In this document: positions 49,184 through 54,444 of the stretch, piece by piece | Layout: every line of letters begins with the position of its first letter | Position numbering within the stretch: position 1 is the stretch's first letter | Assembly (NCBI GenBank): GCA_963794955.1 | Contig: CAWCGF010000003.1 | Span: 125,985-189,984, forward strand | DNA: 64,000 nucleotides | Reading direction: 5' to 3' | Origin: an uncultured Acidobacteriota bacterium | GTDB taxonomy: Bacteria > Acidobacteriota > Blastocatellia > RBC074 | Program-made: the position numbers and the translations under genes | The notes under the pieces: generated by a model | Database searches by the model: none | The model's input: the letters and a program-made list of their open reading frames with translations, nothing else | What the model was told of the DNA's origin: nothing

Positions 49184-49912
49184 ATGCAGTTCGTTCCGAA
49201 TAAGCTGATTGTAGGTCAGACCTGGACGCTAGTTATAAGCGGACTGATTAGCCTGTTTTTCATCCCCGTCACGCAGGCTGGCAATAAACAGAGCAATGGA
49301 TTGATAAAATTTGATTATGCAATAACAGAGGATGCCGACAGCTTATATCTTTCCGCTACGATTCATTCGGCGAATGCCAAGGCCTTTGCCACATCGGCGA
49401 TGATTGAAATTCTCGTCCCCAACGGAACAGGCATTAAGGTGGCTGATGCGGCTCCTATTAATATTAATCCAAATGATGCGACAAGTAGCAAACTTGTCTG
49501 GAGCAGCAAGTTGCCAAAGGACACAAAGATTCCTGCCAATTCATTGGTGAAAATTACAACCAATGTGGCCACAGTTGCGACCATCGCGCTGAAATACCAA
49601 GCCGCCTGCCGCTGGAGCGAAATGGAAGCAGGGTGGAAGGGGGAATGGCGGCGGCGGTTTCAAGACCCCGATACTTTTGATGCGATTTGGACCACCGCAG
49701 GTCAAAAACCGATTACTGCTGAACTAATCATTACGCGTAATGGCAATCAAATCAGCGTCAGTAAAAAAGAAGCTTCAGACGGATCTAACTGTGAATACAG
49801 CGGTGTTATACGCAACGGTGGCAGGACCGTAAAAGGAACCTACACCTGCAAACAAGGGAATCTTGGGCGGGAAACTGAATGGACGGCAACGATTGGTGTT
49901 CACTGCCAATAA
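49184..49912 (+). CDS. Secreted protein with a conserved ~105-aa four-cysteine C-terminal domain (copy A)
   Basis: A signal peptide is followed by the C-terminal domain CRWSEMEAGWKGEWRRRF...DAIWTTAGQKPITAELIITRNGNQISVSKKEASDGSNCEYSGVIRNGGRTVKGTYTCKQGN...EWTATIGVHCQ. The domain is shared with 50301..50816 and 52867..54444. Confidence 0.6.
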   Translation: MQFVPNKLIVGQTWTLVISGLISLFFIPVTQAGNKQSNGLIKFDYAITEDADSLYLSATIHSANAKAFATSAMIEILVPNGTGIKVADAAPININPNDATSSKLVWSSKLPKDTKIPANSLVKITTNVATVATIALKYQAACRWSEMEAGWKGEWRRRFQDPDTFDAIWTTAGQKPITAELIITRNGNQISVSKKEASDGSNCEYSGVIRNGGRTVKGTYTCKQGNLGRETEWTATIGVHCQ

Positions 49913-49928
49913 GAGCCAGGAGACATTT

Positions 49929-50150
49929 ATGATTAAAAATATGATGGTTAGGATTTTCGCCGGATTAGTGGCGGTTTCATTATTAGGCGTTGTTTCGTTT
50001 GCCCAGACTCAGCATATTTTCTATCGCGGAACCGACGGCAACATTAACCACATTTGGTATGACGGCACTATCCATCGTGACCAATGGACAGTAGCCGCCA
50101 AAGCGCCCCTTACCGCAGGTGATCCGGCAACGAAGGCGATGGGACATTAA
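49929..50150 (+). CDS. Small secreted protein (73 aa), paralog of 54538..54747
   Basis: The signal peptide is MIKNMMVRIFAGLVAVSLLGVVSFAQT. The mature part is QHIFYRGTDGNINHIWYDGTIHRDQWTVAAKAPLTAGDPATKAMGH, about 70% identical to the paralog. Confidence 0.5.
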   Translation: MIKNMMVRIFAGLVAVSLLGVVSFAQTQHIFYRGTDGNINHIWYDGTIHRDQWTVAAKAPLTAGDPATKAMGH

Positions 50151-50300
50151 CAGCAAAAATTCCGTAGCACCGAAAGAAGAAATCGTAAGGCCATTAGAGT
50201 AATTATTAGCTTGGCAGTTGCAATTACTGCTCACAACTTAACCTCACGGGTGCAGGCCGATCCCTACGATCTGCTCCGTTATACCAAAGGAAACCTCACA

Positions 50301-51826: not shown

Positions 51827-51977
51827 TGAACATTATCGCGGACTTGGTGAAGAGCAGAAACGGTTTTATCGTTTCTATTAAACTCTATCTTAACCTGTTT
51901 ACTTCGTCAAGATAACTAGGTAATAAGCATACTTAGTTAGAAAACCATACTCCTGACAACTTATCACAAGAGGAACT

Positions 51978-52724
51978 ATGAAAAAACTTATTTCACTTAC
52001 TATTAGTTTGGCTGCTATCAGTTTACTTATCTATGCGCAATCTAGTTTTTGGCTGAAAATGCCAGGCAAAGCTACTGACATCAGCGTTGGAGCGAATGGC
52101 TCTGTCTGGGTTATTGGAGACGACACTCAGGCGGGAGGTTCCAGCATCTACCGCTGGGATAGTGTCAGTAACAAGTGGATTAAAATTGCCGGTAGCGCCC
52201 TTAGGCTTTCCGTTGATAGTGATGGTAATCCCTGGGTCGTCAATATGAATGGGAACATTTATCGCCTTAATAGCGGCAAGTGGGACAAACTTCCAGGTCT
52301 GGCCATGGATATTGGAGTCGGCGCGGACGACTCAATCTGGGTTATTGGCAAGGCGGCTCCTGCCTCAAATGGACAGGTATTTCGGTGGAACGGTGCGACC
52401 TGGGAGAAGACGGACGGACAAGGGACAGAAATAGCTGTGGCGAAAGATGGGACGCCGTGGGTCATCAATATGAATAGCGACATCTTCAAACGAGTAAACA
52501 ATAAATGGGTTAAGGTTGGCAGTAATATGGTTGATGTCGGAACCGGCGCTGATGGTTCTGTTTTGGCCATTACTCAGGCTGAAGAAATCGTCAGGTGGAA
52601 TGGGAACGGTTGGGATAAATTGCCGGGTAAGGCAATGAGAGTTGCGGCTGATCCTCGTGGCAACGCGTGGGTGACAACCACCAACTACGATATTTATTCC
52701 ACACATCCAAAACACCAAAATTAG
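51978..52724 (+). CDS. Secreted tectonin/tachylectin-like six-repeat beta-propeller lectin, paralog of 57881..58627
   Basis: A signal peptide is followed by six ~36-aa repeats of the tectonin pattern (DISVGANGSVWVIGDD...IYRWD; LSVDSDGNPWVVN.NGNIYRLN; DIGVGADDSIWVIGK...VFRWNG and so on). Confidence 0.7.
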   Translation: MKKLISLTISLAAISLLIYAQSSFWLKMPGKATDISVGANGSVWVIGDDTQAGGSSIYRWDSVSNKWIKIAGSALRLSVDSDGNPWVVNMNGNIYRLNSGKWDKLPGLAMDIGVGADDSIWVIGKAAPASNGQVFRWNGATWEKTDGQGTEIAVAKDGTPWVINMNSDIFKRVNNKWVKVGSNMVDVGTGADGSVLAITQAEEIVRWNGNGWDKLPGKAMRVAADPRGNAWVTTTNYDIYSTHPKHQN

Positions 52725-52866
52725 ATAAAGGCGTTGATTAAGGCCTGATGTCAGGCCACTTTCTGTAAACAAAAAGTAAATAAATGATTTGGTTGCAATA
52801 CCTTCATTATTTTGCAAATGTGGCCTGACATTATGTTACACCCCTTAGCTTATCAATAGGAGAAAC

Positions 52867-54444
52867 TTGGCTATGTTACGATCCAGGAAACAAAGAAACT
52901 ACATCTCTTTTACTACGCTAATCCTTCCCTTACAGATAGCCTTGCTAACACTGTTTCTGTGTACTGTCTTCACCTCCACGGCTTTAGCTGCAACCATCAC
53001 TCCGCAATACGATACAAAACCAGAGTATCAGAAATATTGGACTCCTAATTTTAAGGCGCAGGTGAGCGATGCCTGCAATTTTTTGGGAGGGTACATTGGC
53101 AATAATATTACAGTTACGCTCACTGTAACTATTGGTTCTGCCTCTGAATTGAAGGCTGCTTTTGCAGATGGTGCGCCTAACTCGGCCTTGGAAAGCACCA
53201 CGACAAAGTACATTGCTTCAACTGGCACAATCAGATTTAACCCGTCTTCTTTTGACGACACTGCCAAAGATTGGAAAGGAAATAATATCTCGCTGATGGT
53301 GCATGAGATATTTCATTGTCTGGGATTCAACTCTGGCATTACGGCCTTTGCGGCGAACATTGACCAAAATAATGCATTCAAGGGAGCTAATACCCAAAGA
53401 GTAAATGGGAATGCCCCTTACCCTCTCAATGGTGCGAGTGATAAGTCTCATTTCAAAAGAGAATTAACTCCACCGGTTGCCAATCAGGTAGTTACGGACA
53501 AAGTCGGAGTCGCCCCAAGAATGATGGCGGGTGGCGGCGGTACCCTTTCCATTGTTGACTTAGCAGTATTGGCAGACATTGGCTATGACATCCCTGTAGT
53601 CAATTCAGCAACGACCGCCACCTGTTTAGGCTTTAAGCTCAGCCCGTTGAACTCAGGAAAATATAATCAACTTCAATACAAGGCCACTACTTATGTTGCC
53701 GGAGGTTGTGGAAATGACGAAATCAATGGGAACAACTCAGCGGAGAGCATAATTTTACGCGGAGAAGGCGGCAACGACACGCTAATTTCCGGCAATAACC
53801 CTACCGTCATGATCGGCGATGATTTAGACGAATTAGCCAACGGAAAAGATGGAAGTGATCTTTATAAGATTGAGACTAATAAGGCGCACGTGATCGTGGG
53901 GTTAGGAGCAAAAGATAAAATTCAGATTTCATCCACATTAGTAGATCAAAACCAGGTAAATTCACTTACCGTCGCCGCACCCGATCAAACTCTCCCAACT
54001 TATTACTTTGGGGGCAAATCATTTTTCCCGCTAAAAGTAACTATCGGAAGTCTGACTCTATATTCCTATCACGTGCAGGAACCTCTCGATACAGTGAAGC
54101 AAAAGTTAATCAATAGTATTTCACTGTCGGGCGGCAGTTCCTCTTGCCGCTGGGATGAAGCAGAGTACAACTGGAAAGGTACCTGGATTCGACGTGGAAA
54201 CACCAATACTTACGATGCGACCTGGACGTTAGCTGGACAAAACAATGTCACCGCCGTACTCACCATTACTCGTAATGGAAACGCCATCAGTATCAATAGA
54301 ACAGGGAGTTCAGATGGGACGAATTGTCAATATACAGGAACCGTTGCAGCGGACGGCAAGACGATAACCGGGACATTTACTTGCACAAACAACAGCGGAT
54401 ACGTGGCCAATTGGATGGCAACCATTAACGCTGGTTGCAATTGA
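52867..54444 (+). CDS. Secreted zinc metalloprotease (HEXXH) with RTX-like GGxGxD repeats and the four-cysteine C-terminal domain (copy C)
   Basis: A signal peptide is followed by the zincin motif MVHEIFHCLGF. Hemolysin-type Ca-binding-like repeats read GGCGNDEINGNNSAESIILRGEGGNDTLISG. The C-terminus is CRWDEAEYNWKGTWIRRGNTNTYDATWTLAGQNNVTAVLTITRNGNAISINRTGSSDGTNCQYTGTVAADGKTITGTFTCTNNSGYVANWMATINAGCN. Confidence 0.7.
   Translation: MAMLRSRKQRNYISFTTLILPLQIALLTLFLCTVFTSTALAATITPQYDTKPEYQKYWTPNFKAQVSDACNFLGGYIGNNITVTLTVTIGSASELKAAFADGAPNSALESTTTKYIASTGTIRFNPSSFDDTAKDWKGNNISLMVHEIFHCLGFNSGITAFAANIDQNNAFKGANTQRVNGNAPYPLNGASDKSHFKRELTPPVANQVVTDKVGVAPRMMAGGGGTLSIVDLAVLADIGYDIPVVNSATTATCLGFKLSPLNSGKYNQLQYKATTYVAGGCGNDEINGNNSAESIILRGEGGNDTLISGNNPTVMIGDDLDELANGKDGSDLYKIETNKAHVIVGLGAKDKIQISSTLVDQNQVNSLTVAAPDQTLPTYYFGGKSFFPLKVTIGSLTLYSYHVQEPLDTVKQKLINSISLSGGSSSCRWDEAEYNWKGTWIRRGNTNTYDATWTLAGQNNVTAVLTITRNGNAISINRTGSSDGTNCQYTGTVAADGKTITGTFTCTNNSGYVANWMATINAGCN

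Follow-up and report, generated by a model that had tools for sequence, protein, structure and literature searches.

A four-cysteine domain shared by three secreted proteins of an uncultured Acidobacteriota bacterium: a widespread predicted beta-barrel with a candidate role in binding

Introduction

Why should three apparently secreted proteins with different N-terminal parts carry one and the same small cysteine-containing domain? This question is raised by a stretch of 64,000 nucleotides (the window) from an uncultured Acidobacteriota bacterium of the Blastocatellia lineage RBC074 (GenBank assembly GCA_963794955.1, contig CAWCGF010000003.1, positions 125,985 to 189,984 of the forward strand), in which the proteins are encoded by three genes called A, B and C here. 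A first-pass annotation of the window did not recognise the domain and likened it to a C-terminal sorting or anchoring domain or to a binding or toxin module shared by variable cargo. With moderate confidence, and by analogy with other small barrels, we take the domain to be an autonomous extracytoplasmic binding module that serves targeting or sensing. Its ligand would be a glycan or a small polar molecule on a cell surface, a guess in which we place low confidence.

A shared domain in genes A, B and C

The three genes and their parts are as follows.

49184..49912, plus strand: gene A, an open reading frame (ORF) of 242 aa with a hydrophobic signal-peptide-like N-terminus, an unassigned N-terminal domain of ~105 aa and the barrel domain last
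49604..49909, plus strand: barrel domain copy 1, in gene A (ACRW...GVHCQ, four Cys)
50301..50816, plus strand: gene B, 171 aa (identical to P0001), a domain-only protein with a signal-peptide-like N-terminus, a short linker, the barrel domain and a basic tail
50463..50771, plus strand: barrel domain copy 2, in gene B (DCEW...KGGC)
50772..50813, plus strand: tail of gene B, 14 Lys/Pro/Gln-rich residues past the last Cys, FELPQKPKRQPKSE
52867..54444, plus strand: gene C, 525 aa from a TTG start or 523 aa from the ATG at 52873 (then identical to P0007), with a signal peptide, an HExxH zincin-like domain, GGxGxD-like repeats and a C-terminal barrel domain
53302..53316, plus strand: HEIFH motif of gene C, read directly from the sequence
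53701..53865, plus strand: RTX-like GGxGxD repeats of gene C (GGCGNDEIN, GEGGNDTLI, NGKDGSDLY), two to three motif-like units
54142..54441, plus strand: barrel domain copy 3, in gene C (SCRW...NAGCN), the sequence used for the AlphaFold2 model

That the three ORFs share one domain in their C-terminal region, as the first-pass annotation had proposed, is confirmed by alignment, by BLASTP and by profile search. The copies of B and C are 36% and 50% identical to that of A, and 31 columns are invariant, including all four cysteines. BLASTP between the proteins gives E values of 1.7e-30 for A and C, 1.5e-18 for A and B and 1.2e-27 for B and C. A profile of the three copies, run against the six-frame translation of the 64-kb window, recovers these three only, at E 6e-53 to 4e-49; no fourth copy was found in this search, where the next best match has E 1.5. 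Orthologs of A occur at two related loci, with 83% identity over the barrel domain for P0002 on L001 and 45% over the whole protein for P0037 on L057.

The initial description of the domain needs some correction. Its length is ~100 aa, where ~105 aa had been given. The four cysteines are indeed common to all three copies, while the D of the proposed DxxWT motif and the SDG motif are missing from B, the G of the terminal GC is replaced by H in A, and GxYxC reads GTFTC in C. The domain was said to stand always at the extreme C-terminus, which does not hold even within the window, as the 14-residue basic tail of B lies beyond the last Cys. The N-terminal parts differ as described, with an unassigned domain in A, nothing in B and a zincin-like protease in C. 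Signal-peptide-like hydrophobic segments at the N-termini of A, B and C were judged by eye, and gene A has no Pfam or NCBIfam match above cutoff.

For the N-terminal part of C, eight homologs (P0184-P0191, 34-55% identity) were found, all of which have a signal peptide. The HExxH motif, whose conservation among homologs is expected of a zincin, is present in C and in 8/8 of these relatives. No curated peptidase family reaches its cutoff on this part of C (NF038122 with 26.9 bits against 80; Peptidase_M91 with E 0.26), and no peptidase in the PDB matches it. The repeats of C give a weak local match to the NCBIfam RTX_toxin model (E 1.3e-5, far under cutoff), and no Pfam HemolysinCabind match was reported. 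The barrel is absent from all eight homologs, which leaves C as its only carrier among nine proteins, and a partial C-like ORF in the related locus L057 likewise ends without it. Because of these barrel-less relatives, the barrel on the protease of C reads as a recently appended, dispensable module.

Predicted fold and disulfide bonds

With the three sequences, AlphaFold2 reached a predicted local distance difference test score (pLDDT) of 80.9. With a 68-sequence alignment, pLDDT rose to 95.8 at a predicted template modelling score (pTM) of 0.86, and eight strands follow each other in a simple meander. The predicted fold is a closed, minimal eight-stranded up-and-down beta-barrel and not an exotic one. 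Structure prediction and Foldseek on the isolated domain had been recommended as the check to run; the Foldseek search of the model against the PDB gave no match at E<=1e-3, so the domain represents an ordinary fold class without a solved homolog.

Conservation strictly alternates along every strand, the mean top-residue frequency being 0.80 for the conserved face and 0.38 for the opposite one (Mann-Whitney p 2e-8). In family column numbering, the conserved face carries W4, E6, E8, W11, G13, W15, R17, F25, A27, W29, R54, C63, Y65, G67, G78, Y80, C82, W92, A94 and I96 together with aliphatic core residues. As these core residues lie on the same face, the conserved face probably points into the barrel. 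The variable face is rich in Thr, Ser, Asp and Arg, as expected of a soluble barrel. In the window copies, the positions of the conserved face are retained or conservatively replaced, for instance by R54K in A and by F25Y in both B and C. Loops that are long and variable in length occupy columns 31-36, 56-62 and 83-91. The half of the barrel that bears them would also hold E6, E8, W11, W29, R54, Y65, Y80, W92 and the C63-C82 pair, with W4, W15, aliphatic residues, R17 and both chain termini placed at the opposite end.

Four conserved cysteines had been taken to imply two disulfides, and covariation of the cysteines among 173 full-length domains supports this view. The inner pair (columns 63 and 82) is complete in 144 domains and absent as a whole in 22. 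A Cys in the N-terminal flank, before strand 1, occurs in 40/173 domains, and all 40 also have a Cys after strand 8 (Fisher p 4e-36). The terminal cysteines come in two registers, CGLGxxW...ATIxC in 35 domains and CxW...ATIxxxC in five, the latter being exactly the subclade of the window (B, C, the A ortholog P0002, P0034 and P0037). At L065-L067, the terminal pair is kept and the inner pair is lost. The data support the inner pair as a cross-strand disulfide between beta6 and beta7 that would be near-universal in the family. The second disulfide is best read as a staple that joins the N- and C-termini across the barrel seam in a subset of domains including A, B and C.

Family size and distribution

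The extent of the family was determined by an exhaustive HMMER scan of 1.84 billion cluster representatives, the kind of survey that the first-pass annotation had called for. The domain was found in 626 representatives at E<=1e-3, in 301 at E<=1e-10 and in 23 at E<=1e-30. A word-indexed homolog search with domain profiles returned two proteins each, only B itself and the close A ortholog. A scan of GTDB representative genomes, run with a narrower alignment whose pattern does not match the window's own copies, gave 55 loci with the domain. They include cultured Bacillales (Domibacillus, Paenibacillus, Cohnella, Robertmurraya, Neobacillus, Priestia), Acidobacteriota (Blastocatellia, Pyrinomonadaceae, Solibacteraceae, Bryobacteraceae), alpha-, beta-, gamma- and delta-proteobacterial metagenome-assembled genomes, and Trueperaceae, Verrucomicrobiota, KSB1 and Acidimicrobiia. 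Far from being confined to one lineage, the domain forms a wide bacterial family. For the subclade of the window, the metagenome scan gave only four loci, all distant. IMG/VR contigs and phage genomes yielded no copies.

The earlier statement that the domain is unrecognised held in Pfam-A, NCBIfam and the PDB, which were searched for a confident match to any known family. Neither the window copies nor 68 diverse family members score above the cutoff of any Pfam-A or NCBIfam model, and sequence and profile searches of the PDB returned only noise (HGF kringle, alphavirus E1). PADLOC has no defence-system model for the domain, and all source names recovered for family members read 'hypothetical protein'. 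A literature search on DUF6299, on aegerolysin and MACPF proteins and on the spore-coat link gave nothing relevant. No neighbouring gene is conserved in Bacillales or elsewhere across the gene neighbourhoods, as distinct from whole genomes, of about 55 loci. Several hundred clusters, from at least seven bacterial phyla, contain this domain, whose fold is predicted confidently and which curated libraries do not name. It has a strong claim to an entry of its own in such libraries, and defining it would improve annotation, including that of MACPF-type toxin candidates.

Domain architectures

Architectures were counted in the best 150 of the 626 representatives. These proteins contain 215 domain instances, with one copy in 91, two in 53 and three in 6, so that tandem copies are present in 59/150. 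The chain ends within 15 residues of a domain in 105/150 and does not in 45/150, which makes the C-terminal position seen in the window a local accident. By a simple hydropathy rule, 94/150 have a hydrophobic N-terminus.

Pfam partners in 110 full-length members include LCCL, PAN, Fascin, RicinB, SUEL lectin, CBM96, VWA, BON, Zn-ribbon, caspase and TIR. In P0004, a signal peptide and a caspase domain precede three copies of the barrel. In P0030, the order of TIR, transmembrane segment and two copies places the barrel domain outside the cytoplasm. Another layout has a Zn-ribbon followed by a transmembrane segment, and P0028 is, like B, a domain-only secreted protein.

A recurrent architecture of ~450 aa consists of a MACPF-like domain with the barrel at its C-terminus. 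The metagenomic members P0039, P0101 and P0106 match PDB entry 9uj0 at E 7e-5 and complement C9 at E 0.26. Large plasmids of Bacillus mycoides, B. thuringiensis, Clostridium sporogenes, C. botulinum and C. beijerinckii carry the gene for a protein of this type (~455 aa), at these plasmid loci:

L068 3933-5318: MACPF-barrel gene
L069 4921-6300: MACPF-barrel gene
L070 3930-5288: MACPF-barrel gene
L071 3951-5318: MACPF-barrel gene

The C. beijerinckii protein (WP_264647474.1) reaches 22.5 bits with Pfam MACPF (cutoff 21.5) and is annotated 'MAC/perforin domain-containing protein'; two further proteins score 20.5 and 18.9 bits, under the cutoff, and most plasmid copies are annotated 'hypothetical protein'. 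All sequences of the MACPF-barrel alignment (A7) share a [YFC]G..F-x6-GG block, which resembles the signature Y-G-T-H-F-x6-G-G. The plasmid proteins may represent an unrecognised family of pore-forming toxins.

Bacillales homologs

The Bacillales members (loci L002-L035) have an architecture of their own. All 24 that were analysed are ~230 aa long; they begin with a Tyr/Pro-rich segment, lack a signal peptide and hold two domains in tandem. Upstream of 15/24 genes, 40-58 nt before the start codon, lies an exact CATANNNTA element, compared with 1.3% of background windows (binomial p 5e-23, for samples from related species that are not fully independent). In 13 of these 15 genes, AC is found 15-18 nt further upstream. 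Of the remaining nine genes, eight carry one-mismatch variants of CATANNNTA when read by eye. We take CATANNNTA with the upstream AC to be the sigmaK -35/-10 pattern of late mother-cell genes. Because of this sigmaK-like element, the two-domain homologs are probably unrecognised spore-coat proteins expressed in the mother cell. They offer a genetically tractable entry point to the family.

Genomic context

Genes A, B and C lie in a low-GC block, with these further features around them.

45069..48793, plus strand: Reg_prop/Y_Y_Y/HisKA_3 histidine kinase and NarL-type response regulator, directly upstream of the island
49929..58627, plus strand: remainder of the low-GC accessory island of secreted proteins, with DUF346, TolB-like, Tectonin and GOLD-like genes
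49929-50150 and 54538-54747, plus strand: DUF346 mini-ORFs, each a signal peptide and a single DUF346 unit (62% identity; the second with Pfam E 3.9e-5)
50813-51826 and 54848-55765, plus strand: duplicated TolB-like beta-propellers (66% identity)
51978-52724 and 57881-58627, plus strand: duplicated Tectonin-domain proteins (77% identity; Pfam Tectonin E 2.5e-34)
55819-56349, 56408-56845 and 57119-57856, plus strand: GOLD-like small proteins with a common unit of ~95 aa, secreted or lipoprotein-like

On the plus strand between 45069 and 58627, the order is kinase, NarL-type regulator, A, DUF346 mini-protein, B, TolB-like propeller, Tectonin, C, second DUF346 mini-protein, second propeller, three GOLD-like small proteins and second Tectonin. 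The block from ~49 to ~58 kb has a GC content of 42-47% versus 49-57% in the rest of the window. Paralog pairs in the island are 62-77% identical, and the duplicated Tectonin and TolB-like genes indicate an old segmental duplication inside it. The GOLD-like unit matches EMP24/GOLD weakly (E 5e-4 for 56408-56845 and 1.7e-3 for 57119-57856, which has two copies). DUF346 is the blade repeat of PLL-type propeller lectins; a secreted protein with one blade would need to oligomerise to form a propeller, or may be a remnant. A scan of the island for promoters, terminators and repeats gave no shared intergenic motif, only the similarity of coding paralogs.

Related loci retain different parts of this arrangement. 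In the close relative L001, the same kinase-regulator pair precedes the A ortholog. At L058, a B-like gene directly follows an A-like gene, and in the more distant L057 a C-like protease, the A ortholog, Tectonin and GOLD-like proteins are linked. At L059 (10160-11401) and L060-L062, on related metagenomic contigs, a 63-aa ORF and an ISL3 transposase come after the orthologous kinase-regulator pair, in place of the island. By this comparison, the junction after the regulator is a variable site. Because related loci keep different links and L059-L062 have the transposase instead, we read the island as an accessory, variable toolkit of secreted, largely lectin-like proteins. It probably serves interactions with other organisms or polymers.

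Two observations concern the window outside the island. A Septu anti-phage defence pair lies on the minus strand at 40863-42751, immediately upstream of purK (39736-40866). It comprises PtuA (41444-42751, PADLOC E 3.7e-128) and PtuB (40863-41447, E 7e-68), and start and stop codons overlap those of neighbouring genes. At 36122-39397, also on the minus strand, a 1091-aa protein with BNR/Asp-box repeats has a local match (E 8.9e-9) to the Tli3 immunity family of the type VI secretion system.

Discussion

How could this barrel serve as a binding module? An autonomous domain of ~100 residues would fold as a closed eight-stranded up-and-down barrel. Its long-loop half would be lined by Trp, Tyr, Glu and Arg, which suggests a pocket for ligands at the open end, in the manner of avidins and lipocalins. 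The aromatic and polar open top would be set against a closed, hydrophobic bottom that holds both termini. As both termini would sit at the closed end, the module could be strung in tandem or joined to any cargo. In the window, this cargo would be the unassigned domain in A, nothing in B and the zincin-like protease in C, all within a lectin-like island. The barrel-less homologs of the protease speak for this reading, as they show the module gained or lost on constant cargo. Of the proposal of a shared binding or toxin module on variable cargo, the binding part fits the architectures of the family, and the toxin part is kept below as a lower-rated alternative.

Several points weigh against a binding function. 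It rests on architecture and on likeness to other small barrels. The inward and outward faces and the open and closed ends were deduced from the periodicity of the strands and the register of the hairpins and not from a measured geometry. As in designed barrels, the conserved Trp, Gly, Glu and Arg could have a purely structural part, in the packing of the core, in kinks at glycines and in salt bridges buried inside, in which case there would be no cavity. The MACPF-linked barrels of C. beijerinckii and B. thuringiensis are degenerate, having lost the Cys pair and, in some, several Trp. Finally, the Bacillales members without signal peptide may be structural components of the spore coat, which would favour a role in assembly.

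Such a role is the first alternative to be weighed. The domain would be a structural module for homo-oligomerisation or lattice formation, as in avidin tetramers or spore-coat blocks, and would not bind a foreign ligand. In favour are the two-domain Bacillales proteins, which start with a Tyr/Pro-rich segment, lack a signal peptide and in 15/24 cases have an upstream sigmaK-like CATANNNTA that suggests a coat location, the common tandem copies, and the avidins as nearest soluble folds, since avidins are obligate oligomers. However, it is the face in phase with the aliphatic core that is conserved and the opposite one that varies, the reverse of the pattern that a conserved oligomer interface would give, and the fusions to MACPF, to a protease and, across the membrane, to TIR look like targeting or sensing. 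We regard self-assembly as unlikely for the family.

It is less likely still that the domain itself is the effector, a small secreted toxin or antimicrobial to which the N-terminal parts are accessory. Domain-only secreted proteins do exist (B, P0028 and proteins of one to three copies), and the domain occurs in an accessory low-GC island and on plasmids. An effector of this kind is at odds with the lack of an immunity-like gene or other conserved neighbour across the about 55 loci and with the lack of PADLOC matches. The domain is also repeatedly joined to domains that are themselves effectors (MACPF, protease, caspase, TIR), and its tandem repetition is typical of binding modules.

A C-terminal signal read by a secretion or attachment machinery, the sorting or anchoring function considered at the outset, is largely refuted and now looks very improbable to us: the domain occurs internally and in tandem, Bacillales members have no signal peptide, and no neighbour gene is conserved at the loci compared. 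It was suggested by the C-terminal position on three secreted window proteins with unrelated N-termini, and 105/150 representatives do end with the domain. Against this stand the 59/150 multi-copy proteins, the 45/150 that do not end in it, and the tail of B. No curated sorting-domain model was matched in Pfam or NCBIfam, the neighbourhoods of the about 55 loci, whole genomes not being surveyed, hold no conserved gene able to be the sorting enzyme, and the family spans monoderms and diderms.

The poorest prospect is an intramolecular protease inhibitor or pro-domain that would keep C or the caspase fusion silent until release, after the manner of the serralysin inhibitor Inh. Inh (family I38) accompanies RTX-type metalloproteases and is an eight-stranded barrel with one disulfide and a length of about 105 aa. 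For this reading, C does join HExxH, RTX-like repeats and a disulfide-containing barrel of ~100 aa, and another member is fused to a caspase domain. Against it, the domain is present in C alone of nine homologous proteases, a protease is missing from most family members, and Pfam Inh gives no match at E<=1.

The binding-module reading can be extended, more tentatively, to the whole family. The domains would then make up a previously overlooked class of small ligand-binding barrels, stapled by disulfides, in which a conserved pocket of Trp, Tyr, Glu and Arg takes up one widespread microbial or host surface molecule, such as a glycan or small polar ligand. They would have been reused as a plug-in targeting or sensing head for MACPF toxins on Bacillus and Clostridium plasmids, secreted proteases, transmembrane TIR and caspase signalling proteins, and spore-coat proteins. 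We regard this wider picture as possible but less likely than not. If the domain binds a defined ligand, this would explain how the effectors find their targets, and a very small disulfide-stabilised barrel scaffold would be added to the natural binders.

Comparison with known systems

Among soluble folds, the closest likeness is to avidin and streptavidin. The avidin type is an eight-stranded antiparallel up-and-down barrel of about 110-125 aa, and the domain as modelled agrees with it. Structural alignments with shwanavidin, bradavidin and agroavidin give 13-15% identity, and Pfam Avidin (PF01382) has no match at E<=1 in the window proteins or the 68 domain sequences. The pattern of conserved Glu, Arg and Cys is unrelated to that of avidins, and the domain occurs in tandem and modular form, which is rarely so in avidins. 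Other barrels of the calycin type are the lipocalins, bacterial lipocalin-like domains and FABPs. Compared to lipocalins (about 160-180 aa, with an N-terminal 3-10 helix and a C-terminal alpha-helix), the domain is about 60 residues shorter and has neither flanking helices nor any helix of four or more residues. Its length of ~100 aa, the lack of helices and the lack of a match to a family hidden Markov model (HMM) speak against lipocalin or calycin identity. Likeness to OmpA-like membrane barrels is purely geometric, and this assignment was rejected as the non-conserved face is polar and not hydrophobic.

The serralysin inhibitors Inh and APRin (MEROPS I38) are also small eight-stranded barrels with a disulfide; membership in Inh (PF02974) was rejected for want of an HMM or close structural match. 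Sorting domains of the type IX secretion system C-terminal, PEP-CTERM and LPXTG types were rejected as well, since no Pfam or NCBIfam model matches and the domain is not a single copy at the extreme C-terminus.

DUF6299 (PF19816) is the only Pfam family matched by several members, with 9/68 isolated domains and a best E of 0.0019. On the isolated domains and on ten examined proteins, these matches stay under the 26.8-bit cutoff, and the extents seen are 25-40 residues in the region of the C-x-Y-x-G...G-x-Y-x-C hairpin. Among the individually tabulated matches, that of P0008 is best, covering about 40 residues with 19.5 bits; E 5e-07 is reached by one multi-copy member searched at full length. 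Membership in DUF6299 is not supported, as isolated domains stay under the gathering cutoff.

In architecture, the family is similar to the ancillary domains of pore-forming toxins and hydrolases, such as perforin C2, domain 4 of cholesterol-dependent cytolysins (CDC), carbohydrate-binding modules (CBMs) and ricin-B. The layout is the same, a variable effector followed by a small beta-rich module that is sometimes in tandem; the fold differs, and there is no sequence relationship. The family appears undescribed in the libraries searched, while its fold class and the logic of an effector plus a small binding module are already familiar.

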